From Candidatus Altiarchaeota archaeon (GTDB taxonomy: Archaea; Altiarchaeota; Altiarchaeia; IMC4; SCGC-AAA252-I15), in NCBI GenBank assembly GCA_043800255.1, contig JAZDNF010000003.1:32001-96000 (forward strand): a DNA stretch of 64,000 nucleotides, written 5' to 3'. Every line of letters begins with the position of its first letter. The first letter of the stretch is position 1. Under the pieces are notes generated by a model. It saw nothing but the letters and a program-made list of their open reading frames with translations, was not told where the DNA came from and did not search any database. A program made the translations under genes and the position numbers. Positions 29,045 through 62,652 of this stretch are shown piece after piece.

Positions 29045-30105
29045 GGGACAAGCAGAAGGAGAAGGAAGACGACAAAGAGCTCATAGGCCTCATAAAAAAA
29101 GGCTCGCAGATAAAGGCGCCTGAACAGGTGTGGCAGACGAAAGTCAGGAGAATAGACGCCTTCGGCGACTTCACGCAAGCATCACAGGAGAGCGGCGAAC
29201 CGTACACGGTCTCGGACGCGATGAAATCGGCCGAAAACTTGGTCAAAGAGCACGGCCTGAAACCCAACCAGGAGGTCACCATCATAACAGAGGACAAAGG
29301 CAAGAAAGTAGAGAAGAAGATGACATTAGAGCGCATGTCCAGCCTACGCAAAGGAGACAGCCTCTACAAGAAACTCAAAAAAGACGGCGGATGGGTGAAA
29401 TTCGGAGACGAAGGCCCGGACAAGGAAACAGTCAAAGCCGTCGTGGGAGGAACCCTCCTCAAAGCAGCAGGCATAATAGCGGAAAAAGTCGAGGAGGGCG
29501 AAATACCAGACTCCCAGAAGAAGAAGGCAGCTGAAGTGGTGGCAAAATGCATAAGAGAATGGGACAGCATACAAGACCAGGGACTGGACCAGACACGAGC
29601 AACAGAAGCCTTCGGCGCCCTCGGAATGACAGGAGGAAGCCCGGGCGGCGGAATCTACCAGCCCTTCTCACGCTACACCGTCGGAATACCCTGGGACTAC
29701 ATCGACACCCAAAGCAGGATAATGGCAGCCTGGTGGTTCGACAACGTCAAATGGAGAAGCCAATACTCGATAGTCGGAAAATACGTCTCACTGCCCTGGG
29801 CGATAACAAAATACGGCAAAAAAAACAAAAAGAAGAAAAAAAAATGGAAGAAAAAGGTCAGAAAATTCGAAAAAATGTTCGACCTATTCTACATCAACAT
29901 AGAAGACGTATTCGACCTCGACAACCTAAGCATATGGGACATATTCGAACTCGAAGACTACGGAAAAACAAAACCCACAGGAAAACAATACGAATCCATA
30001 AAAAAACTCATGAAAGAACAAGGCTACTTCAAAGAACAAGAAGCCATCAAAGCAGCAGAAATAACCAGAACACCCCAAACAAGCGACATATTCAAAAAAC
30101 CCTAA
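29041..30105 (+). CDS. Hypothetical protein with a poly-Lys tract
   Basis: GTG start overlaps the upstream stop after a GGAGG SD; KKNKKKKKKWKKKVRK. Confidence 0.6.
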   Translation: MRDKQKEKEDDKELIGLIKKGSQIKAPEQVWQTKVRRIDAFGDFTQASQESGEPYTVSDAMKSAENLVKEHGLKPNQEVTIITEDKGKKVEKKMTLERMSSLRKGDSLYKKLKKDGGWVKFGDEGPDKETVKAVVGGTLLKAAGIIAEKVEEGEIPDSQKKKAAEVVAKCIREWDSIQDQGLDQTRATEAFGALGMTGGSPGGGIYQPFSRYTVGIPWDYIDTQSRIMAAWWFDNVKWRSQYSIVGKYVSLPWAITKYGKKNKKKKKKWKKKVRKFEKMFDLFYINIEDVFDLDNLSIWDIFELEDYGKTKPTGKQYESIKKLMKEQGYFKEQEAIKAAEITRTPQTSDIFKKP

Positions 30106-31154
30106 GAGGGCACCGTAATACCCAACCGATTACTAATGTGCTCAAAAACCATCCGCCGGGATGCACAATAATAATCTCGGGTATAGATAGACCCATGCAC
30201 CTTAAACGCATTATAGGTGCAACCCCCATTACATAATTCTTTCCACTTGCAGCCTAGGCAATCTGCTATCCTGTTTCTCGCAAATTTTGGATACGATTCA
30301 ACCAGAATTTCTTTTAGACTCCTATCAGATATATTTCCTAATTGCATTGACTTCTCATTAGCAAACGTATCGCAAGGGTAGACATTCCCAAAAACGTCAA
30401 TATGTATGAGCCGGTCCAGACAATTTCCTATGCTCCAACACCCACTAGTTTTATTACTGGTAACAGCATAGGAATATTCCATAAGCGTTTTTATTCTGAT
30501 TTTATCGAATTGAGGATACCACAAATCGAACAGCTCTGTGAGAGCTATGCCATACTCTTGGGGGGTTATAGCAAGAGAGTTATCAGGGGGGTAAGGGCGG
30601 ATAGGATTTAACCTAAAGCCGAGATTAATGCTCTTAAAGAAGTTGAGTATCCGGGGTATTTTATTCAAACCTATGCGTGTTAGAATACAGATACATCCGA
30701 ATCGAACGTTATGCTCTCTAAGAATTTTAACTGAGTTCATTATATCGTCATGCGTTCCACCTCCATCACAATAGACTCTTTGAGAATCATGGATGTCTTT
30801 TGGACCATCAATACTCAGACCCAAACCGATATTATTATCTTTAATGAATTTGACGGTCTGTTCATCAATCAATGTTCCATTAGTCTGAATCTTTATTTTC
30901 ATCTCGAGTTTATCCTTGAACATTCTTTTTAGGTCCATTACTTCTTCTAAAAACGGAATCTCCTCGATAAAGGGCTCTCCGCCAAAGTATTGGAATGTGA
31001 CCTTCTTTTTCCCCAATGATATTACCTCCTCAAGTATCTTGTTTAATGTATCCAGATCTATCGTGATGTCACCTTTCTCATAAAAACAATATTTGCACGA
31101 AAGATTGCACTTCCGCGTTAGCTCAACTATCACTCCCGCATTTTTTGGGATCAT
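30102..31154 (-). CDS. Radical SAM/SPASM domain protein (anSME-like/peptide maturase)
   Basis: CNLSCKYC, GGEP, QTNGTL, SIDGP; SPASM Cys set GCWSIGNC...YPC...CLGCKWKELCNGGC...DYYC. Confidence 0.92.
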   Translation of the reverse strand: MIPKNAGVIVELTRKCNLSCKYCFYEKGDITIDLDTLNKILEEVISLGKKKVTFQYFGGEPFIEEIPFLEEVMDLKRMFKDKLEMKIKIQTNGTLIDEQTVKFIKDNNIGLGLSIDGPKDIHDSQRVYCDGGGTHDDIMNSVKILREHNVRFGCICILTRIGLNKIPRILNFFKSINLGFRLNPIRPYPPDNSLAITPQEYGIALTELFDLWYPQFDKIRIKTLMEYSYAVTSNKTSGCWSIGNCLDRLIHIDVFGNVYPCDTFANEKSMQLGNISDRSLKEILVESYPKFARNRIADCLGCKWKELCNGGCTYNAFKVHGSIYTRDYYCASRRMVFEHISNRLGITVPS

Positions 31155-31155
31155 T

Positions 31156-32247
31156 TTAATTGGATGATGTCTGGACTCCTAGTTTCTTTGCGATATGGTC
31201 GAAGAGACTCGTGTATCCTTCACAATAATAGTCGGGGTGGGATATTGAACCCTGGTACAGAAACGCATTACGCATGCAACCACCCTGACAAACGCGAAGC
31301 CAAGTGCAATCATAACATTTCACCATTTCGCTCTGTTCTTTGTAAAATGCCAAAAATTTCTTGGAATTTATGATGTCAGGATAAGATTGTTCGTTTATAT
31401 TGCCTATGCAAAATGCATTATCTTTCATCTGCCGGTTACATGCAAAAACATCCCCGTCCCATCTTATTCTGAAATATTTACGATGACAATTATGCATTGA
31501 CATCGACTTTCCCTGTGGGGAGGCTAACATATTTTTTATAATCTTTTTGAACGTTGTTATTGTGATTTCATGGGAACTGTCAGAGTACCATAAGTCGAAT
31601 AGACTAACAAATGATTTTCCCAAGTCCGCCGGCGTTAATCTCAGTTTCTCTTGCCCACAACCATAACCAAGAGGGTATATTTTAAAATTGATTTGATTTT
31701 CCCTGAAGAAGTAATAGAGATCCTGAACAGCATTACCATTAATTTTGCTTAGGACACACACTGCCCTTAATTTCATCTCACGCTCGCGCATAAGTTCAAC
31801 CGCCCTCATCGTATTATCAAATGAACCACTGCCATCCGCATATTTTCGTGTGCTATCATGAATTTCTTTTGGCCCGTCTATGCTCAAATAGATTTTAAAG
31901 TTGTTTTCTTGGAACAAATCCAACCAATCCTCGTCTAACAATGTGCCATTTGTCACAACAATGTTTTGTATATTGCGACCATCAGAAAACTTTTTTTCGA
32001 GTTTTAGTGCAGTTTCAAAAAATTTTTTACCAGCTAATAATGGTTCGCCCCCAATCCACTTAAAAGTCACATCATCAAATGCTATTGAGAACGCTTCTGA
32101 GATTGACTTCTGCAGTGTTTTATGACCCATCAAATTTTTTCCGGAGGATATGTAACAGTAATCGCAAGATAGGTTACATTTATCAGTAACGGTTAAAACA
32201 AAATAACTTGGAAATTCACAAGCCTCAACATCCATACGCCATTTCAC
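31156..32247 (-). CDS. Radical SAM/SPASM domain protein (anSME-like/peptide maturase)
   Basis: CNLSCDYC, GGEPL, TNGTLL, SIDGP; SPASM NC...FAC...CYDCTWLRVCQGGC...DYYC. Confidence 0.92.
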   Translation of the reverse strand: MKWRMDVEACEFPSYFVLTVTDKCNLSCDYCYISSGKNLMGHKTLQKSISEAFSIAFDDVTFKWIGGEPLLAGKKFFETALKLEKKFSDGRNIQNIVVTNGTLLDEDWLDLFQENNFKIYLSIDGPKEIHDSTRKYADGSGSFDNTMRAVELMREREMKLRAVCVLSKINGNAVQDLYYFFRENQINFKIYPLGYGCGQEKLRLTPADLGKSFVSLFDLWYSDSSHEITITTFKKIIKNMLASPQGKSMSMHNCHRKYFRIRWDGDVFACNRQMKDNAFCIGNINEQSYPDIINSKKFLAFYKEQSEMVKCYDCTWLRVCQGGCMRNAFLYQGSISHPDYYCEGYTSLFDHIAKKLGVQTSSN

Positions 32248-32250
32248 AAC

Positions 32251-33756
32251 CTATGCCTCACAAGGATCAAAACGCTCATCAGAACGATTATCCCAATGAT
32301 GATCACTATTATCCCAATCAAACCAATGATAATCATGATTATCCCAATTATCCCAATTATCCCAATTATCCCTCCAGTAATCCGCCCGCTCCCGAAGTCG
32401 CTTCGCTAGTTCCTCATCCTTTAGCTTATCTTCTGCGATTGTGGCAGCTTTCTCACATTCCTCTATATTGTGAATTCCTTTTTCAGCAACGTCAACCGCT
32501 CTACCCCAAAGATCAGCAGCTCGCGTCTGGTCTCCTAATTTATCAGCAGCAACAGACCCTGTGTGAGCTAGAACCTCAAAATTGTGACTGTTATACACTA
32601 CAGCAACATTGATAGCACGAGACCACCACTTTTTAGCACTCTCAACATCACCAACACGCTCAAAACGATCACCAACACCAACAACACCACCCCAATCAGA
32701 CTTCACAGAATAACCCCCAACAGCACGAGACCACAACTTTTTAGCAGTGGCCCTATCACCTACATCCTCAAAACGATCACCAACACCAACAACACCACCC
32801 CAATCAGACTTCACAGAAAATGCCTCGGCAGATTCAGACCACAAACGCTTAGCCGCTACAACATCACCAACACGCTCAAAACGATCACCAACACCAACAA
32901 CACCCTCCCAATCAGACTTCACAGAATAACCCTCAACAGCACGAGACCACAAACGCTTAGCACCCTCAACATCACCGCAATTACGACATTCATCTCCCCT
33001 TCGTTGGGTAGTAAACTCGTTCAACCGTTCGACTTCCGAACGATCTGGTATCGGAGGTGGTTCGGCGAAGTTGCAGCCGGTCAATTTCTTGTATCTGTCA
33101 TTGGCTTTGGTGTGCGTTGGGTCGCGTTCGATTTCGGCACTATAACAGCGAACCGCCTTTTTTTCGTCACCTAAGAGTTCGAATGTGTAACCCTGACAGA
33201 AATTCGAATTGGGATGGTTGGGTTCTAACTTTAACGCCTCCCCAAAACAATCTTTCGCCCTGCCTAAACAATCCGACTCATCAGTATGATCCCACAACCG
33301 TAATAGATTAACACCCCGGTTATGCCAGATTTTAGGAACCTTAGAATCCAACTTCAAAGCATCACCATAAAGCTCATCCGCCCCCCGATATTTATTGACT
33401 ACCACACTCACATCAGCGCCCGCCTTCGAAAGACTACGACCCTCAAGAGACAACTGCCGCGCCTCCCCAGCAAGCTGCTCAGCCTTAAGCCTGTTAACGT
33501 CTCCAACAGCGCCGGTCTCATCAGAAAGAACCCTTAAACGGGAATGCGAAGGCTTAACGCCCAAGAACTCCAGAAACTTCCGCCTATGCTGCTCCTCCCT
33601 AGCTCCTGCAGACAGCTCCTCGATGGGGGATTCAATGTCTTCAACAGGCTGGATCCTGCTCTCCCGCCCAAGCTGACCCTGCTTGATAGGAGGGATACCC
33701 TCAAACTGCCCCTCCCTAGAACCCACACCCCCGACCTGGGACTTGCGCTTCTGCAT
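32251..33756 (-). CDS. TPR/36-aa helical repeat protein with C-terminal WDN-repeat tail (candidate RiPP-like substrate)
   Basis: TPRs (WHNRGVNL...ALKLEP). Start set at MQKRKS (33756) by identity with the paralog. Tail YWRDNWDNWDNWDNHDYHWFDWDNSDHHWDNRSDERFDPCEA. Confidence 0.75.
   Translation of the reverse strand: MQKRKSQVGGVGSREGQFEGIPPIKQGQLGRESRIQPVEDIESPIEELSAGAREEQHRRKFLEFLGVKPSHSRLRVLSDETGAVGDVNRLKAEQLAGEARQLSLEGRSLSKAGADVSVVVNKYRGADELYGDALKLDSKVPKIWHNRGVNLLRLWDHTDESDCLGRAKDCFGEALKLEPNHPNSNFCQGYTFELLGDEKKAVRCYSAEIERDPTHTKANDRYKKLTGCNFAEPPPIPDRSEVERLNEFTTQRRGDECRNCGDVEGAKRLWSRAVEGYSVKSDWEGVVGVGDRFERVGDVVAAKRLWSESAEAFSVKSDWGGVVGVGDRFEDVGDRATAKKLWSRAVGGYSVKSDWGGVVGVGDRFERVGDVESAKKWWSRAINVAVVYNSHNFEVLAHTGSVAADKLGDQTRAADLWGRAVDVAEKGIHNIEECEKAATIAEDKLKDEELAKRLRERADYWRDNWDNWDNWDNHDYHWFDWDNSDHHWDNRSDERFDPCEA
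32287..32373 (-). repeat. 9-nt TGGGATAAT (Trp-Asp-Asn) units
   Basis: ATTATCCCA on the plus strand at 32287, 32308, 32338, 32347 and 32356; variant ATTATCCCT at 32365. Confidence 0.9.
32614..32961 (-). repeat. 108-bp tandem repeat (36 aa) x3, with a further copy at 34046-34177
   Basis: AGCACGAGACCAC at 32614, 32722 and 32938 and at 34046 and 34154; unit AKRLWSRAVxGYSVKSDWxGVVGVGDRFExVGD. Confidence 0.92.
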
Positions 33757-33786
33757 CAATAGTATAAGAACAACGGCAGAATAAAT
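33739..33786 (-). promoter_or_regulatory. Duplicated promoter plus start region (copy at 35495-35542)
   Basis: 35 bp identical GGACTTGCGCTTCTGCATCAATAGTATAAGAACAA; TTTATT box ~24 nt before each ATG (leaderless-type). Confidence 0.7.
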
Positions 33787-33901
33787 GCCCCCAAAACAAT
33801 AAAACCCATATCCCCACAATCAAAATAAACTACGTACAATCATCCGATCGCTCATACTCGTTCACATCGGATAAATCGGCCACATCTTCTTCCTCAATTC
33901 T

Positions 33902-35512: not shown

Positions 35513-35807
35513 CAATAGTATAAGAACAAGGGCGGAATAAATAAGGTTTCTGGAGGATAGGATGGGATACTCGTTTTTTGGCGTGGTTTGCTGTCCGGGA
35601 TGGGAGGGCCTTTTGGCGGTTTTGGAGGTGCTAATAACTACTAATCACTACTAGATTAGTATTTAGAGTGAAGAGAGTCGGGGGATTAGATTCCGCAGCA
35701 GACTAAACGCTCTGGGTTAAGTGCGTGATTCGGGCGCGGACACAGCCCCACATGCGAACCGTATAGTGAAGGTTCTGGCTGTAAGGACAGTAGATGTCGG
35801 CTGGACA

Positions 35808-47800: not shown

Positions 47801-48766
47801 CTAGAACATCGCGCCAACAGAGTTGTCATAATCCTCGTTGATGAGGGTGTCATGGATCTTTCTCCTCTCTAGGTTCTTCTCAAATTCATCCTTGAAGTAT
47901 TCTTTTAGCAGTGAAACGTAGTCTTCTTTTTCGATGATGCTTTTCGCAGCCAAAGCCCCGCTTATTATCGCATACCTGATGCCAAAGCCCCGGGAGGCAT
48001 CTTGGAAGCCAGCAGCCTCTCCCACGAGAAGCTGTTTTCCATTTGCTGCTTTAGAATAGGGGTTTTTTGAGTAATAACCATAGCCGCCTACGCGCTCGAC
48101 CAGCGTGGCATCCTTGGTTATCTTATTTAGAAACTGGTTCATGTGGATAGCTTTGAGGAAGATTTCATCCAAACTTGAGAATTTTCTCTTGTCGAAGGTG
48201 ACAGCCATCACCGTAGAATGCTTTCCATAGGAGAGCACATAGGCGTAGCCATTCGGCACTATATTGTTATCATACAACAGGTAGAGCGTGTCCTTCTCCA
48301 CGTTCAAATCCAGATAATTGAACCCTGTACCGTATATGTTCGCCTTCTCAGCGGGGGTTCCAGTAGCGTTTATGTCTGCATTCACAGGCTTATCCCAGTT
48401 GAAATAGAACTTTACGCCGTTAGATAATGCATCAGCATACAACTGCTGCTCCAACGCCAGCTTCGCCCCACCAGTGTTCAGAAGATAATACCTCCTTCTG
48501 CCCATAATCCGCGAGAAGCTAGGAGACATCTTCACCACCTGCTCGGTCCTGCTGACACTGTTGACTGTTAATCCCAACTTCCTGAATTCCTTTAGGGGGT
48601 CTCCGCCGGGATAATTCCTCAATGCGCATATATTCCGCCCAAACTTATGACCTACCTCACTGTTTTTTTCGTACACGATAGAGTTATATCCTGCCTTCCC
48701 CAAGACTACTGCCGCCGAAAGACCTGATAAACCAGCCCCGATTATTTTGATATTCTTTGAATACAT
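47801..48766 (-). CDS. FAD-dependent oxidoreductase, geranylgeranyl reductase-like
   Basis: IIGAGLSGLSAA...VYEK, GYAYV, LVGEAAGFQD...GFGIRYAIISGALAA. Confidence 0.8.
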   Translation of the reverse strand: MYSKNIKIIGAGLSGLSAAVVLGKAGYNSIVYEKNSEVGHKFGRNICALRNYPGGDPLKEFRKLGLTVNSVSRTEQVVKMSPSFSRIMGRRRYYLLNTGGAKLALEQQLYADALSNGVKFYFNWDKPVNADINATGTPAEKANIYGTGFNYLDLNVEKDTLYLLYDNNIVPNGYAYVLSYGKHSTVMAVTFDKRKFSSLDEIFLKAIHMNQFLNKITKDATLVERVGGYGYYSKNPYSKAANGKQLLVGEAAGFQDASRGFGIRYAIISGALAAKSIIEKEDYVSLLKEYFKDEFEKNLERRKIHDTLINEDYDNSVGAMF

Positions 48767-48769
48767 CGT

Positions 48770-49156
48770 TTACCAGTACTTAAACTTTTTTTTGCCGAGT
48801 ACAAATATCCCAAACACAAAAATTAAAGCAACCACTAAAAAAAGAATGCCAGATGGTGTGTTAAACGTATAAAGTCTTCTTGTGAGGACTAATACGATGA
48901 ATCCGACACCTATAAATCCAAAGTAGTTTGCTTTTTTCAAAATCCGGGATCCTACATCCATTTCTTTGGCGCCGAATTTTCTCAAAGCCATGAACACGAG
49001 AGTTATGCATAATAACAATGATAGTGTTGCCAATGTCAACAGTATTGTTAATATCCCATCTTCGACAAGTAAAGTAGCAAACAGTGAGAATCCAAAAATG
49101 AGTGTAAGGGATAGCAGACTTATTTTAGTCGCCTCTACCGGTGTTAGTTCCGTCAT
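48770..49156 (-). CDS. 4-TM membrane protein
   Basis: Four hydrophobic segments; operonic spacing with neighbours. Confidence 0.6.
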   Translation of the reverse strand: MTELTPVEATKISLLSLTLIFGFSLFATLLVEDGILTILLTLATLSLLLCITLVFMALRKFGAKEMDVGSRILKKANYFGFIGVGFIVLVLTRRLYTFNTPSGILFLVVALIFVFGIFVLGKKKFKYW

Positions 49157-49983
49157 ATAATCGCCTCTGAGATGAGAAGCATAACCCCGGTTAGTGGGTA
49201 GGATAAGATTGATGGAAGAAAGGCCCGTTTAATATCCTCCTTAATCACGGCATATGATAGATACCCTCTCAGTGGGAGAACAACAATAAGACTTAGATAC
49301 AGTGGAGGAATTGATTTGATAACTAGGAGGGAAAATAGCATAGCATACTGGAATAGGGTAATCGTCAACATTAACAATCCAGTATTTTTAACCCCCATTA
49401 GTATTGGAACTGTCCGGATCCCTGCCTTCCTGTCGCCTTCTATATCAGGTATATCCCTTAGGATCATCCCACAGAGGCTTAATGTTGAAAAGAAAACAGC
49501 GACGAGTAAGATTTTAACAGTGCTAATATTGGAAAAAGCTGACGACAGATAGATGAACATCAAAAACCAACTGAAAGTCAGGATTATCGTTTTAAGCCAC
49601 CCATATCTTTTGAACCGTATACGTCCATGAGAGTAAGAGTATCCAACAATCAATATTATTATAGCTAGTACTAGTGTGAAAGTCCCGATAACATAGCTGA
49701 TGAGTAAACCTAAGACCGCGAAAATCAGGAGTATACGGATATAAACATTCTTATTTATGAAGGATAATGGATTCGGTCTTTTATTCAGAGTATCCTCCTC
49801 GATATCTGTTATATAGTTGTATCCATATGTGGATGCAAACAGGCAAAAGCCTCCAAAGAGAATTTCTAACAATCTAATAGAAGACAACTCGCCTGAAGTT
49901 AATGCAAACGCACCTAATGCATAAGATAACAGGACTATCACATGTCTGTACCGCATAATCTCTAGTGTCTCCCTCAAGTCCAT
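49153..49983 (-). CDS. UbiA-family prenyltransferase
   Basis: NYITDIEED..NKRP, YSYS, RDIPDIEGD motifs; multi-TM. Confidence 0.88.
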   Translation of the reverse strand: MDLRETLEIMRYRHVIVLLSYALGAFALTSGELSSIRLLEILFGGFCLFASTYGYNYITDIEEDTLNKRPNPLSFINKNVYIRILLIFAVLGLLISYVIGTFTLVLAIIILIVGYSYSHGRIRFKRYGWLKTIILTFSWFLMFIYLSSAFSNISTVKILLVAVFFSTLSLCGMILRDIPDIEGDRKAGIRTVPILMGVKNTGLLMLTITLFQYAMLFSLLVIKSIPPLYLSLIVVLPLRGYLSYAVIKEDIKRAFLPSILSYPLTGVMLLISEAII

Positions 49984-51125
49984 GATAATTTACCCGTTTC
50001 GGTTAGAATTAACGCCAGCGATCCGCTTGCAGTACTTGCTGTAGTTTTCTCTAGAAAAATTCTTTTCCCTTTGAGTGAGGATAACATTCCAGATAATATT
50101 CCCCTGAAAATAACAAGATCGGAGTTTTCAGAGTATCTACTCCAAGGGAAATGATTACATATTACATTGAATTTTCCGTTACTCTTTGTTACAACCATGT
50201 CCCCCCATCCAAGTGCAGGAAGGAAATCTGATATAAACTCAAGCTTTTTTTCTTCCTGTGCTAATTCGAAGCCACAATCAAAAGCTGAATCGAATAGTAC
50301 TCTTTGTCCATCCTTTGATTTTTTAAACTCATCCTCAAGAACATAGATGAGATGAGATTCGCACATGAAGTAACGGAATTTTCTGTACATCATTTCACCA
50401 CGATTGTAATCTAAGAATCCCGCATCCATAAGACTCTTAAGCGAGTTTTTCGCATAGTCAGCATGTCTAATTTTGTTCATGCGCTCATATGCTTGACTTT
50501 CGGTTATAGTAGGCACATTCGTTTCCGTGAAAAATTCTAACTCTTCTCTTCGCAGGATATTTGGAGGCGCGCTTATAATCTCACAACTATCGTCTCCCCG
50601 ACCGACACATTTTATCTGCACGCTTTCTATCGAGGGATCAACCATCATATACGACCATATGCCTGCGCTGCCTCCGGCAGCCCAGAGATACCCATGACCA
50701 TTTGACCTGCATACTAGGTATTCATCTGCCGTGAATACTAGTTTCTTCTCTTCTTTTTTGATAGAGTATTTTACATTTTTTGCATACGTAACTCCGAGCA
50801 GTCCTGTGAAAAATCCCGTAAAATTTAACACCTCTTTTTCTGCTGAATTCTTCAGATTTGGGAAGTTCGAGAGATTAGCATATAAGTACCCGAATTTCTT
50901 TCCAATCGAGTAAAGAACTTTCTTCCCCGCATCTCCATTTTTTTGGATTGCTCTGTTTTCTAGAATAATGAAAAACCGTTCTGGAAGGAACAATAATCTC
51001 AGATACGTTCTAGCTCCTTTCCGTGATGCCTGCGTTATCAGAAATCCGGGCTGGTCTATTATCTCTATTTTTGGCAGTATCACTCGTTGAATCCACAATC
51101 TGATAATCTGGTCTTTTAGGCTCAT
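49974..51125 (-). CDS. Tandem V4R-like domain protein
   Basis: LYSIGKKFG, QIKCVGRGDDSCEI, LGWG...FRGILSGML. Confidence 0.65.
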   Translation of the reverse strand: MSLKDQIIRLWIQRVILPKIEIIDQPGFLITQASRKGARTYLRLLFLPERFFIILENRAIQKNGDAGKKVLYSIGKKFGYLYANLSNFPNLKNSAEKEVLNFTGFFTGLLGVTYAKNVKYSIKKEEKKLVFTADEYLVCRSNGHGYLWAAGGSAGIWSYMMVDPSIESVQIKCVGRGDDSCEIISAPPNILRREELEFFTETNVPTITESQAYERMNKIRHADYAKNSLKSLMDAGFLDYNRGEMMYRKFRYFMCESHLIYVLEDEFKKSKDGQRVLFDSAFDCGFELAQEEKKLEFISDFLPALGWGDMVVTKSNGKFNVICNHFPWSRYSENSDLVIFRGILSGMLSSLKGKRIFLEKTTASTASGSLALILTETGKLSWT

Positions 51126-51895
51126 TATGAGTTCGTATTTTCAGATTGACCAACTTTAATACCGTTTTTTGTGAATTCAAAGGGTACCATACCACTCTCT
51201 ATTTTAGTTTCCCGTAGTTTAGCCACTTCAATGAACCTATTTACTGCATCTCCTACGACATTTTTGCGTAAGATCATTACTCCATCACACTCGTACTCCG
51301 CAACGCCGTCTACTGTTATTCTGGGTCCACCGTCTTCGGCTTCGCCTACGAGTATTAGGGTGGTGTTTGTCCCCTTGAAAGCCTTCTCCAGTTTGAGCAT
51401 CAGCCGCCAGATGTCCTGCCTGTGGAGGTCTCGCATAGATTTCACGACCTCTACTTCCTGGCCAGCCTTCTTCTCTTGGGATTTTTCTTTGCGCACTCCA
51501 ATCTCCAGGAACTTAGTGATTGAATCAAGGATGATCACCACGCCTTTGTCATGCTTCATCTTGCCCATGCTGATGATGTCTTCGGCGGTGTTGTTTATGT
51601 CCACTATCTCCTCCCGGGGTGTTGCCACCATGAGCTGCCGTTTTTCCGCGTAATCTCTAAGATTCCAACCGAACATGTCACCACGCCCATAAATTTTCTC
51701 AGTATCAGATTCAAGGCTCATAAGAACCACAATCTTGCCCTGCTTCAGAAAATTGTAAGCCATCTGCGTCACCGCGATAGTCTTCCCTGTACCCGGTCCC
51801 CCGGCCACCAACAGCGAACTCCCCGCAGGGATTCCTCCTTCGATCAGTTCATCCAGTCCATGTATTCCCGTGGGTATTCTTTCGATTTCAGCCAT
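51125..51895 (-). CDS. KaiC/RAD55-like ATPase
   Basis: IPTGIHGLDELIEGGIP, GGPGTGKT, ILDSIT, ECDGVMIL, VAKLRET. Confidence 0.88.
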   Translation of the reverse strand: MAEIERIPTGIHGLDELIEGGIPAGSSLLVAGGPGTGKTIAVTQMAYNFLKQGKIVVLMSLESDTEKIYGRGDMFGWNLRDYAEKRQLMVATPREEIVDINNTAEDIISMGKMKHDKGVVIILDSITKFLEIGVRKEKSQEKKAGQEVEVVKSMRDLHRQDIWRLMLKLEKAFKGTNTTLILVGEAEDGGPRITVDGVAEYECDGVMILRKNVVGDAVNRFIEVAKLRETKIESGMVPFEFTKNGIKVGQSENTNS

Positions 51896-51948
51896 TTTTG
51901 TGCAAACCTCTGGTTAACATATTAAGACAGACGCTTTTAAAGCGGCAT

Positions 51949-52728
51949 TTAGACAACTCGCCCTATTGTCGTGTGCGGGCAGTCATGTTTTCTGCATATT
52001 TTCTCCAATCTATGAAGCTCCTGCTCTGGGAGGGTGACGAGAAAGTTGTCCAGGTTTCGGGTTATGCTGTAGGGTATTTTCTCCTCCAGCTTGAATTTCC
52101 TGCCTGATTTCCTTTCCATCTCGTATACGACGGAAACCAGGCCGCCTTTGGTGACGTCCTTGCTGGAGTTGATTTTGGTTTTTTTCAGGATAGCATACCA
52201 CGTCTTGAACAGCAGTTTAGCCTTCTCCAGGCGTTCCTCTTGCTCGCCCCATATGGGCTCGCCAACCAGCGCTATGACGTCTCCAGGTCTCGCGCCGTCG
52301 TCTCTGATAGGCTCGTCCAATAACAAGTCGCCGATTACAGCAAGAGTGCATCTGGGCTCCGCATCCTCGAACAATGTGTTGCCCCCGAGGAGGGGAATCT
52401 TCAGCGATAAAGCCTGCCGCTTAAGGCTCCTAATCATCTCCCTCACGTCAGACTCTTCCCCGATGAGACAGTCAAGGGCGAACAACGGCCTCCCGCCCTT
52501 GACGATGACGTCGGTTGAGGCGTGCACCAGCGCGGACTTCATGACAAGCCTCTTAGTATAGGGACCGTCCGCTGACACGAGCAACTGCTTACTGCCGAAA
52601 GGGTGGACGACTGGATCATCCCATGCTGTTATGCCAAGGACTGGCTCAGCCAGCGTGTCCATTTCCAACAGCTCCTCCCTGATCCAGAGCAGACTATCAA
52701 CGAACTTCTCAGGAAGATCTTCCCTCAT
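51949..52728 (-). CDS. AIR synthase/PurM-like (ThiL-related) protein
   Basis: WDD, VSADGP, TDVIVKGGRP, LGGNT, ARPGD, KDVTKGGL. Start set at MREDL (52728). Confidence 0.75.
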   Translation of the reverse strand: MREDLPEKFVDSLLWIREELLEMDTLAEPVLGITAWDDPVVHPFGSKQLLVSADGPYTKRLVMKSALVHASTDVIVKGGRPLFALDCLIGEESDVREMIRSLKRQALSLKIPLLGGNTLFEDAEPRCTLAVIGDLLLDEPIRDDGARPGDVIALVGEPIWGEQEERLEKAKLLFKTWYAILKKTKINSSKDVTKGGLVSVVYEMERKSGRKFKLEEKIPYSITRNLDNFLVTLPEQELHRLEKICRKHDCPHTTIGRVV

Positions 52729-61758: not shown

Positions 61759-62652
61759 TCAGGTTAGAACCTCACAGCCGTCTGAGGTCACAAGAACGGT
61801 GTGCTCGAACTGGCTTACTATGCCCTTCTCCTTCTCATGAAGGGTCGGGTACTCTCTTAGTATGCCCTTGGAGACCATCTCCTTGAGCGCCAGATTAAAC
61901 CGCAACGGGTTTATCTTCTTGGAATACCATCTGGCTGCAAACGGCAGGCCCTCCCGCGGCTCTACCTCGTTCATCAGAATCCTCGCCTCCTTCAAGCGGG
62001 TGGGCTTCATCCCCATGAGAGAATAGATTTCAGCATACTTTGACTCTACCACCCTGCCGTAGCCGTCTGTCGCGAAAGGCTCCAACGCCAAGACCATATC
62101 CTCCTCGATCTTCCAATCGTAGGGGACTCTGATGTTGGGTATATGGAGTCCGGCATGCAGGTCGTACTGTCGCACCTCATGCCCTGTGAGGTTTTCGATG
62201 GGCTTGAAACCGGCCCCAGTTATGATCCTCTGGACCGCCCCACCTATCGTATTGACAGACTCGCCAGGCTTCACCAGCTCTATGGACTCTTGGAGAGCCT
62301 TCCGGTTGGCATCCAAAAGCTTCGAATAGTTCCCAGAAAGGTCTACGGTGTACGCGGTATCTGCTATGTAGCCGTCAACGTGCACGCCCAAATCGACCGA
62401 GACAACGTCCTTTTTAGAGAGCGTAGTCTTGTCGTCGAACTTCGGCGTATAGTGCGCTGTGACATCATTTATGCAGATGTTCGTTGGAAACGCGACATCA
62501 GCCGTCTCCCTGATTTTCGCCTCTATCCTCTCCGCAATCTCCAGTATGCTCGCATCAGCCTTAACGAGAGACCTGCTCCACTCCCTCACCTCTTTGGCGA
62601 TTCCGCCGGCCTTCCTGTAGGACTCCAGAACCTTCTCTTCCATTTTTATCAA
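61759..62652 (-). CDS. map: Methionine aminopeptidase type II
   Basis: AFP, AHYTP, DLGVHVDGYIADTAYT, NLTGH, LEPFAT, SQFEHT. Confidence 0.95.
   Translation of the reverse strand: MIKMEEKVLESYRKAGGIAKEVREWSRSLVKADASILEIAERIEAKIRETADVAFPTNICINDVTAHYTPKFDDKTTLSKKDVVSVDLGVHVDGYIADTAYTVDLSGNYSKLLDANRKALQESIELVKPGESVNTIGGAVQRIITGAGFKPIENLTGHEVRQYDLHAGLHIPNIRVPYDWKIEEDMVLALEPFATDGYGRVVESKYAEIYSLMGMKPTRLKEARILMNEVEPREGLPFAARWYSKKINPLRFNLALKEMVSKGILREYPTLHEKEKGIVSQFEHTVLVTSDGCEVLT

Follow-up and report, generated by a model that had tools for sequence, protein, structure and literature searches.

Introduction

Cyclophane formation by radical S-adenosylmethionine (SAM) enzymes is known from short bacterial precursor peptides. 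Among its products are the triceptides, three-residue cyclophanes in which an aromatic side chain is linked to a beta-carbon on an aromatic-X2-X3 motif, and for which about 3,900 putative pathways have been described (PMC11499958). Trp C6 is joined to Arg or Asn by the enzyme XncB and Trp C7 to Asn or Asp by OscB, Tyr C3 is the ring position that YxdB joins to Asp, and for HaaB and YhhB the link runs from His C2 to Ala or Arg (PMC11002830). All characterised triceptides are reported to be cleaved before the first ring (PMC12912966). The antibiotic dynobactin, WNSNVHSYRF, has one link from Trp C6 to the beta-carbon of Asn at i+3 and another from a His nitrogen to the beta-carbon of Tyr at i+2, and the enzyme DarE is described as forming both C-O and C-C links. 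Here we describe a gene unit within a 64,000-nucleotide stretch of the genome of a Candidatus Altiarchaeota archaeon (assembly GCA_043800255.1, contig JAZDNF010000003.1, positions 32,001 to 96,000; the whole stretch is called the window below), in which a gene for a TPR protein with a tail rich in Trp-Asp-Asn (the TPR-WDN protein) is directly followed by genes for two radical SAM/SPASM (rSAM/SPASM) enzymes, rSAM-A and rSAM-B. By analogy with the systems named above, we consider it fairly probable that this unit is a triceptide/dynobactin-like cross-linking system with its core fused to a large scaffold protein.

An earlier note, made from the letters of this DNA, had proposed such a system on the ground that aromatic residues are cross-linked in WxN-type motifs, and this chemistry is indeed in print for Trp-x-Asn/Asp, Tyr-x-Asp and His-x-x motifs (PMC11002830). 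For Archaea the record is short. In the accessible text of a 2025 survey of archaeal peptides made on the ribosome and modified after translation (RiPPs) the word cyclophane is absent, and only two haloarchaeal lanthipeptides are given as validated previously (PMC12144867). Six archaeal sequences fall in an unrelated cluster in the accessible text of one cyclophane paper (PMC11851443). No characterised archaeal rSAM-cyclophane product was found in the searchable literature; supplementary precursor tables such as PMC11499958 Fig. S1 and PMC11851443 Table S7 may list archaeal or fused precursors.

Results

A TPR protein with an aromatic tail is encoded directly before two rSAM/SPASM enzymes

According to the open reading frame (ORF) list of the window, the genes for the TPR-WDN protein, rSAM-A and rSAM-B follow one another in this order on the minus strand as one tight co-oriented unit (Table 1). 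The junction between the first two genes reads TAG-GTT-GTG, with a gap of 3 nt, and that between the two enzyme genes reads TAA-A-ATG, with a gap of 1 nt; both the coordinates and the junction letters agree with the arrangement given in the earlier note. Use of the alternative ATG start of rSAM-A would widen the first gap to 15 nt. Gaps of 3 nt and 1 nt exclude space for a separate small precursor gene, and indicate coupling at the level of co-translation.

The TPR-WDN protein matches TPR families (TPR_2, 46.5 bits with a cut-off of 27), and its ESM Atlas model predicts a TPR-like solenoid at about residues 35-463. The ten feature hits and the ten structure rows are without exception TPR proteins, at a low structural similarity (TM 0.31-0.43), and on the family matches together with the modelled helical solenoid the protein can be assigned to the TPR proteins. 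It would consist of an N-terminal region in common with a neighbouring paralogue, the solenoid, and a C-terminal aromatic/acidic tail. A weak match of the TPR repeats to an ANR-regulator model (27.7 bits, cut-off 32) was set aside. Among 5.8 billion proteins the sole homologue of the TPR-WDN protein is the adjoining paralogue.

The tail, YWRD-NWDNWDNWDN-HDYHWFD-WDN-SDHH-WDN-RSDERFDPCEA, is 42 amino acids long and is identical, letter for letter, to the low-complexity end with a three-residue period that the earlier note had seen on a protein of about 500 residues. It includes five WDN, one WRD, an HDY (H-x-Y), a WFD/HWD, a W-x-x-N (WRDN) and a single Cys near the end. When about 1.01 million sequence windows from the 10,908 six-frame ORFs of at least 60 amino acids in the 1.75-Mb genome were ranked, the eight overlapping [WHFY]-x-[DN] triads of the tail were the genome-wide maximum; the runner-up, with seven, is the antisense frame of the tail itself, and six triads were reached by only four ORFs. 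Trp makes up 7 of the 42 residues (17%) versus 1.0% genome-wide, and in a regular-expression scan of the genome the tail was the only Trp-based run of its kind. The tail is highly non-random and exceeds what chance would produce. All five WDN motifs are encoded by TGG GAT AAT, and the remainder of the tail (HDYHWFDWDNSDHHWDN) keeps the triad pattern without DNA repetition. By eye, the stretch directly before the tail (..EELAKRLRERADYW) resembles a degenerate last copy of the AKRLWSRA-type repeat of the protein itself.

A phmmer search of the last 59 amino acids against 1.84 billion representatives returned only the self match, which does not prove that the tail type is unique because the way in which HMMER handles composition may hide repeat peptides. 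A complex prediction for rSAM-A and the last 59 residues, made with a 40-row alignment and including SAM and three 4Fe-4S clusters, scored 0.01 against a mark of 0.32 and was counted neither for nor against binding. The single Cys of the tail (..FDPCEA, window 32254-32270, minus strand) is two residues past an Asp and beside a Glu. On the plus strand, a 134-amino-acid ORF with the sequence YPNYPNYPN (window 32208-32612) is the antisense reading of the WDN repeat and most likely not a gene.

The two enzymes resemble DynA and anaerobic sulfatase maturases at a distance

Both enzymes score above the Pfam cut-offs for Radical_SAM and SPASM (67.2 and 44.1 bits for rSAM-A, 71.8 and 31.3 bits for rSAM-B). 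They are 33% identical to each other, and the nearest proteins, in the search of 5.8 billion, reach only about 35% identity. The best NCBIfam match of both is DynA (NF041298; 283.3 bits for rSAM-A and 271.8 bits for rSAM-B, cut-off 450) and the second best is the anaerobic sulfatase maturase (anSME) family TIGR03942 (242.9 and 212.8 bits, cut-off 349.45); by score neither enzyme is a member of the DynA equivalog or of TIGR03942. As controls, the anSME P0069 scored 416 with TIGR03942 versus 248 with DynA, and the DynA-family protein P0033 scored 486 with DynA versus 225. Membership in the XyeB, GrrM or FxsB families, to which the earlier note had looked, did not hold up, all scores being far under the cut-offs: 140.9 (rSAM-A) and 118 (rSAM-B) bits for GrrM/OscB (TIGR04261, cut-off 310), 100.5 bits for XyeB (TIGR04496, cut-off 450; rSAM-A, with rSAM-B not among the best 25), and 107.5 and 90.4 bits for FxsB (TIGR04269, cut-off 370). 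The same applies to YhhB (NF041707; 132.5 and 137 bits, cut-off 445), and the ranthipeptide enzyme PapB is matched at 131-140 bits (cut-off 340).

The closest solved structure is that of anSMEcpe (E ~1e-47), with ChlB (E 1e-18) and CteB distant. Both enzymes keep every radical-SAM and SPASM cysteine that is invariant across the 40-row alignment. In this alignment the residue that follows the Cys aligned with anSMEcpe Cys276 is Asp in all three anSME rows; we take this residue, Asp277, to be the catalytic base of anSME. An Asp at this position is found in only 2 of the 37 non-anSME rows, rSAM-B and P0025, and the position is occupied by Asn in rSAM-A, by Ala in two DynA-type rows and mostly by Gly in the others. 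The upstream Cys aligned with anSME Cys255, presumably an auxiliary-cluster ligand in anSME, is kept by at least 90% of the rows and is missing from rSAM-A, and rSAM-B keeps the C-x5-C-x15-C pattern. Since the two enzymes differ where the substrate would meet the first auxiliary cluster, they may have two separate tasks.

Phylogenetic placement

A FastTree phylogeny of 182 rows was built from 83 near hits of at least 300 amino acids (P0004-P0086) and the rSAM ORFs of the fetched loci, with 3 of 36 further, mostly near-identical hits of 410 amino acids. A split with 100% support divides it into sides of 103 and 79 rows. The larger side takes in every one of the 24 rows that have a sulfatase-motif gene close by, and all five rows named as anSME; on the smaller side are all 20 rows with a neighbouring WxN-repeat ORF, together with DynA and the two window enzymes. 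A clade of 39 rows within this smaller side (96% support) includes the window enzymes, DynA, the Pacearchaeota enzyme of locus L007 and the Bacteroidia enzyme of locus L039.

An IQ-TREE quick search on 68 selected rows placed 16 anSME rows in a clade with 100% support, with the window enzymes outside it in a 31-row group that includes DynA (Shimodaira-Hasegawa-like approximate likelihood ratio test, SH-aLRT, 82). When 11 DPANN rows were added, rSAM-A fell in a 40-row clade (SH-aLRT 88) with 9 of these 11 rows and not a single anSME or WxN row. In the approximately unbiased (AU) test, a tree constrained to group both enzymes with the 16 anSME rows was worse by 29.8 log-likelihood units, with a p-AU of 0.058, a borderline value at which a grouping with anSME is not rejected at 0.05. 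That the rSAMs stand apart from true sulfatase maturases, as the earlier note had supposed, is thus the outcome of two trees, with the AU test at the border. The position of the window enzymes outside the crown anSME is well supported by the sequences, and their precise position is not fixed by the trees; the best-supported placement of both would be in an uncurated rSAM/SPASM lineage between DynA and anSME.

Genes adjoining the relatives of the enzymes

Genome loci were searched with exact 8-mers of rSAM-A, which in effect recovered proteins that share DGPKEIHD, and consequently anSME is over-sampled and closer relatives may be missed. A sulfatase-motif ORF is found nearby in 25 of the 80 genome loci fetched, and in three (L047, L048 and L067) there is instead an ORF of 52-60 amino acids ending in (WxN)5-8. 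The order in these three is small secreted protein, precursor, rSAM (414-421 amino acids), second rSAM (369 amino acids) and ABC exporter. This two-rSAM cluster (5498-9984 in L047) is common to them and to the metagenome loci L115, L127, L196 and L178; its precursors, of 52-64 amino acids, have a leader and a (WxN)7-8 core ending in WWT, the metagenome-assembled genomes are of Thermodesulfobacteriota type, and both precursor and enzymes are under all NCBIfam cut-offs. A (WxN)4 DNA pattern was unspecific, matching mostly other frames of 9-bp-periodic repeats, many of them on giant-virus contigs. Among the matches listed, an rSAM-A/B-like gene adjoins an ORF with a C-terminal WxN repeat in 17 of 119 metagenome loci, and only these 17 were used further; the two-rSAM type accounts for four of them, in addition to the three genome loci, and others are Gly-rich, one of which (L104) has a faint likeness to GrrA/OscA1 (16 bits, cut-off 31). 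An rSAM-like neighbour is missing from all 80 viral (WxN)4 loci read (L216-L295), of 119 among the matches listed.

Both loci of the 39-row clade that were read have a small ORF on the strand of the rSAM gene, with an end that is acidic and aromatic; it lies upstream of this gene in L039 (..DDDYTDYYDDSDYNDDSK) and downstream of it in L007 (..FMFWHNDTEHTDHNEKYNENSR). Relatives of the L007 enzyme are carried by 15 of 401 genomes of its phylum, 14 of them besides the genome of L007. Precursors rich in His/Tyr-x-Asp/Glu occur in seven of the eight DPANN loci whose enzyme is 32-48% identical to that of L007 (L339-L346); there are one to four of them, of 76-147 amino acids, on the same strand and downstream of a single rSAM/SPASM gene, as in the example at L345:2610-4094, a locus with four precursors. 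None was found in the six remaining DPANN loci listed, at 28-35% identity. Such archaeal His/Tyr-x-Asp cores were not mentioned in the searchable part of the literature. In a MAFFT alignment the bacterial WxN and the DPANN precursors have in common a leader framework, ..N-x-x-L-R-x-I-L.. followed by F-x-F-W, and they match no NCBIfam precursor model. The cores of the relatives have few or no Cys.

In two further relatives, the members P0060 (503 amino acids) and P0019 (452 amino acids) of the 39-row clade, the enzyme itself continues at its C-terminus into a leader-like stretch and an acidic aromatic core, so that a core on a large protein has precedent; the two would seem to be self-contained fusions of enzyme and substrate. 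The best BLASTP alignment of the window tail with P0060 is on this fused tail (E 0.002, as a single comparison). The expectation of the earlier note that homologous loci would carry motifs of this kind was thus realized in part: aromatic-x-N/D motifs are found on the (WxN)7-8 peptides, on the DPANN precursors and on the tails of fused enzymes, that is, on short precursors or on the enzyme itself, and never on a TPR protein.

Search for a cognate sulfatase

No sulfatase with a C/S-x-P/A-x-R motif was found among the ORFs of the window, and no canonical cognate sulfatase was found in the genome, which is 93% complete, so that its absence is unproven. The cognate sulfatase that would have spoken against the idea of the earlier note is therefore neither adjacent nor, in canonical form, present in the genome as sequenced. 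The only ORF of the genome with a Sulfatase domain encodes 702 amino acids (contig C7:173045-173905; L081:604-2712, minus strand) and reads S-A-P-S-H at the position of the sulfatase motif; its sequence is probably that of another branch of the alkaline-phosphatase superfamily. A second hit of the sulfatase search is a phosphoglycerate mutase-like protein.

Paralogue, host and mobile-element setting

The immediate neighbours of the unit are a 354-amino-acid ORF without family match, a tail-less paralogue of the TPR-WDN protein, and a KaiC-like ATPase, in keeping with the earlier remark that no peptidase or ABC exporter is adjacent. The paralogue (P0002) is 41% identical to the TPR-WDN protein over 23% of the query. 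The two proteins share an N-terminal motif (..HRRKFLEFLGVK..) and C-terminal AKRLWSRA-type repeats, and the paralogue, membrane-anchored with two hydrophobic segments, lacks the tail. A nearly identical upstream motif precedes the ATG of both genes (Table 1) and is, from its sequence, a candidate promoter or 5' element; its presence in both upstream stretches supports the ATG at 33756 as the start of the TPR-WDN gene. Where the rSAM-B gene stops, a T-run comes after a short stem; as evidence for a possible end of the transcription unit this is weak, because shuffled sequence is expected to hold as many such sites as the region does. The pattern scan belonged to a bacterial sigma-70 promoter scan, whose promoter calls are meaningless in an archaeon and were disregarded.

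Table 1. Coordinates of features of the gene unit and its surroundings in the window.
Feature	Position	Strand	Remarks
TPR-WDN protein (P0001)	32251..33756	-	501 aa, gene-caller form, ATG at 33756
Longer ORF form of the TPR-WDN gene	32251..33819	-	522 aa from TTG
Aromatic/acidic tail, proposed multi-site core	32254..32379	-	42 aa; sequence reading
rSAM-A	31156..32247	-	363 aa from GTG; 359 aa from ATG at 32235 (P0003)
rSAM-B	30102..31154	-	350 aa from ATG
Tail-less paralogue P0002	33902..35512	-	536 aa
Upstream motif TTATT..GCC.TTGTTCTTATACTA	33757..33790 (TPR-WDN), 35513-35545 (paralogue)	-	direct reading
Short stem then T-run at the rSAM-B stop codon	30099..30111	-	pattern scan; possible transcription-unit end

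The third-codon-position G+C content (GC3) is 0.42 for the TPR-WDN gene, 0.38 for rSAM-A, 0.41 for rSAM-B and 0.44 for the paralogue, so that these four genes form an island of 0.38-0.44 versus 0.60-0.75 in the flanking type IV secretion system (T4SS) and host genes. The surroundings of the island are a T4SS-type conjugative module (window 21507-42244) that includes a 1,749-amino-acid membrane protein, TrbL/VirB6-like and PrgI-like proteins, a VirB4/TraG-type ATPase with 28-31% identity to the CD1110-family VirB4 of Gram-positive plasmids, a protein with a T4SS-pilin domain, and the KaiC-like ATPase. Archaeal housekeeping genes bracket the module: TgtA (500.7 bits, cut-off 350), a methanogen-type SerRS, aRF1 domains, an RPA-like protein and HMG-CoA reductase. 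The host chromosome is archaeal, as the earlier note had held, and the island is cargo of a conjugative element, probably acquired as a single piece. No close homologue of rSAM-A was found in 60 other species genomes of the phylum.

A second patch of low GC (0.41-0.43; window 48001-52000) encodes a UbiA-family prenyltransferase, a 383-amino-acid ORF without family match and a second KaiC-like ATPase. Outside the window there are additional rSAM/SPASM-like ORFs at C1:7576-8664 (486-amino-acid frame) and C5:107477-108475 (651-amino-acid frame), both distant relatives of rSAM-A; the 486-amino-acid type recurs in 4 of 40 relatives.

Discussion

Proposed mechanism

In the cross-linking system that we propose, the TPR-WDN, rSAM-A and rSAM-B genes would form one transcription unit, and both enzymes would cross-link side chains within the C-terminal tail. 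A 5'-deoxyadenosyl radical formed at the CxxxCxxC cluster would remove a beta-hydrogen from a motif's third or fourth residue, an Asn, Asp or Tyr. The resulting carbon radical would attack the aromatic ring of a Trp, His or Phe two or three positions upstream, with the electron passing to the SPASM auxiliary clusters. Small strained cyclophane rings would result, in a row of up to about nine within the 42 residues. Because the enzymes have no N-terminal recognition domain, we propose that they recognise the motifs directly, as anSME does on whole sulfatases, or that the TPR solenoid replaces the leader. The anSME enzymes act on a protein of about 500 residues without a leader, a precedent for enzymes of such a lineage. 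That the tail is the substrate, what bond is made, how rSAM-A and rSAM-B share the work and whether the tail is removed later are points that we infer rather than observe.

A bolder version, on balance doubtful, is a modification at the scale of the protein, where a leaderless tail with multiple cyclophanes stays on the TPR scaffold, which recruits both maturases. The tail, rich in His and Asp, would then possibly bind metal, and the whole module would serve the conjugative element that carries it, for example in mating-pair contact, surface adhesion or exclusion.

Several observations weigh against a cross-linking system with a fused core. Both enzymes are far under every curated cut-off and have long branches; the joins with DynA themselves are unsupported (33 and 1), the AU value leaves a grouping with anSME standing, and rSAM-B retains the anSME-like Cys-Asp pair. 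A perfect 9-bp DNA repeat encodes the three WDN that stand in a row in the TPR-WDN protein and may have arisen by recent slippage, and the protein that carries the fusion is, apart from its paralogue, an orphan. A leader-only hidden Markov model (HMM) built from 20 related precursors and compared with the 30,807 six-frame ORFs of the genome did not match the TPR protein, its best match genome-wide (E 1.2) being on the rSAM-B frame; the window core is hence not a transplanted precursor cassette, and the idea of an imported leader-plus-core cassette making up the last 60-80 residues was dropped. No peptidase or ABC exporter was found adjoining the unit, and the bacterial clusters do carry an ABC exporter; a scan of 38 window ORFs brought up a single peptidase, the M24 family protein encoded at 61759-62652.

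Alternative explanations

The tail could be the substrate of some other chemistry, such as a Cys-Asp/Glu thioether of the ranthipeptide kind, a darobactin-type ether, epimerisation or beta-hydroxylation, possibly by one enzyme only with the other making C-C rings. The PapB and DarE/DarW models also match the enzymes (E 1e-28 to 1e-45), but at 99-153 bits they are well under the 272-283 bits of DynA. The Asp-Pro-Cys-Glu at the end of the tail would suit a thioether; it holds the only Cys, however, in a tail dominated by Trp/His-x-Asn/Asp triads, and Cys is scarce in the cores of the relatives as well. The different auxiliary-cluster ligand patterns of this divergent pair suggest two reactions, and DarE is described as making C-O as well as C-C links. 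We regard this explanation as unlikely. We are more sceptical of the idea that the tail is a low-complexity end made by slippage, the rSAMs acting elsewhere or on a metabolite and their juxtaposition reflecting shared cargo. It would account for the tandem repeat behind (WDN)3 and for a TPR protein that is an orphan and has no leader motif of the related precursors. On the other hand, the composition and three-residue period of the tail match those of the neighbours in seven of eight DPANN loci and of the two fused enzymes, its non-repetitive part continues the pattern, the gene gaps are of 3 nt and 1 nt, and no other ORF of the genome has a comparable stretch.

It is very unlikely that rSAM-A and rSAM-B are sulfatase-maturase-like enzymes that make formylglycine from a Ser or Cys of some sulfatase or other protein of the alkaline-phosphatase superfamily. 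Such a function would agree with anSMEcpe as the closest structure, TIGR03942 as the second-best family, the Cys-Asp pair of rSAM-B, the AU p of 0.058 and the one Sulfatase-domain ORF on contig C7. Against it, the TIGR03942 scores of 243 and 213 bits are under both the cut-off of 349 and the DynA scores of the same enzymes, the enzymes lie outside the 100%-supported anSME clade, the C7 ORF reads S-A-P-S-H, and the window has no sulfatase-motif ORF, unlike 25 of the 80 relative loci. We give hardly any credence to decaying cargo, in which intact ORFs would be unexpressed or non-functional in this host: the composition is foreign and none of the phylum's 60 other genomes yielded the genes, but all four ORFs are full length, with the invariant cysteines and the tight spacing kept.

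Significance

If the tail is modified, such enzymes can do without a leader when acting on the end of a 500-residue protein; the unit would then offer a natural template for equipping proteins with rows of rigid rings, and would tie RiPP-type chemistry to archaeal conjugative elements. Modification at the scale of the protein, if true, would make this the first rSAM cyclophane system on an appendage of a folded protein and the first in Archaea. The comparative work also exposes two sets of precursors, the bacterial (WxN)n and the DPANN (His/Tyr-x-Asp)n.

Comparison with known systems

With the triceptide systems (XncB, OscB, MscB, YxdB, HaaB, YhhB, ChlB and HtkB), as described in PMC11002830 and PMC11499958, the unit has in common the rSAM/SPASM type of enzyme, encoded beside the gene of the candidate substrate, and multiple aromatic-x-x motifs, of which the tail has eight triads in addition to HDY. 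It differs in that the core is on a 501-amino-acid TPR protein, with no detectable leader and no protease adjacent, instead of on a short leader-bearing precursor that is cleaved before the first ring, and also in its archaeal host and in having two enzymes.

The likeness to DynA (called DynE in one review) is in enzyme length, in the missing N-terminal recognition domain, and in the WRDN and HDY of the tail, which are literal counterparts of the Trp-Asn (i+3) and His-Tyr (i+2) pairs described for dynobactin. The scores of 283 and 272 bits versus a cut-off of 450 and the unsupported tree join beside DynA set the window enzymes apart, and dynobactin is a 10-residue Gram-negative antibiotic with two rings, whereas the tail would offer up to about nine motifs on a protein. 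Like anSME (PDB 4K36-4K39), the closest solved structure, the enzymes have a three-cluster architecture; unlike anSME, they are outside the anSME clade and under its cut-off, no cognate sulfatase was found, and rSAM-A has Asn at the Asp277 position.

The bacterial (WxN)n two-rSAM clusters and the DPANN loci resemble the unit in their aromatic-x-N/D cores and are on the same side of the tree; the former share two tandem rSAM/SPASM genes with it and the latter an archaeal host. Their precursors, in contrast, are of 45-147 amino acids with a leader framework, the bacterial clusters add an ABC exporter, and the enzymes of both are only 25-36% identical to those of the window. Judged by its sequences, the unit departs from the triceptide/dynobactin class in the architecture of its candidate substrate, in its host domain and in its mobile-element setting, and its enzymes are outside every curated family.

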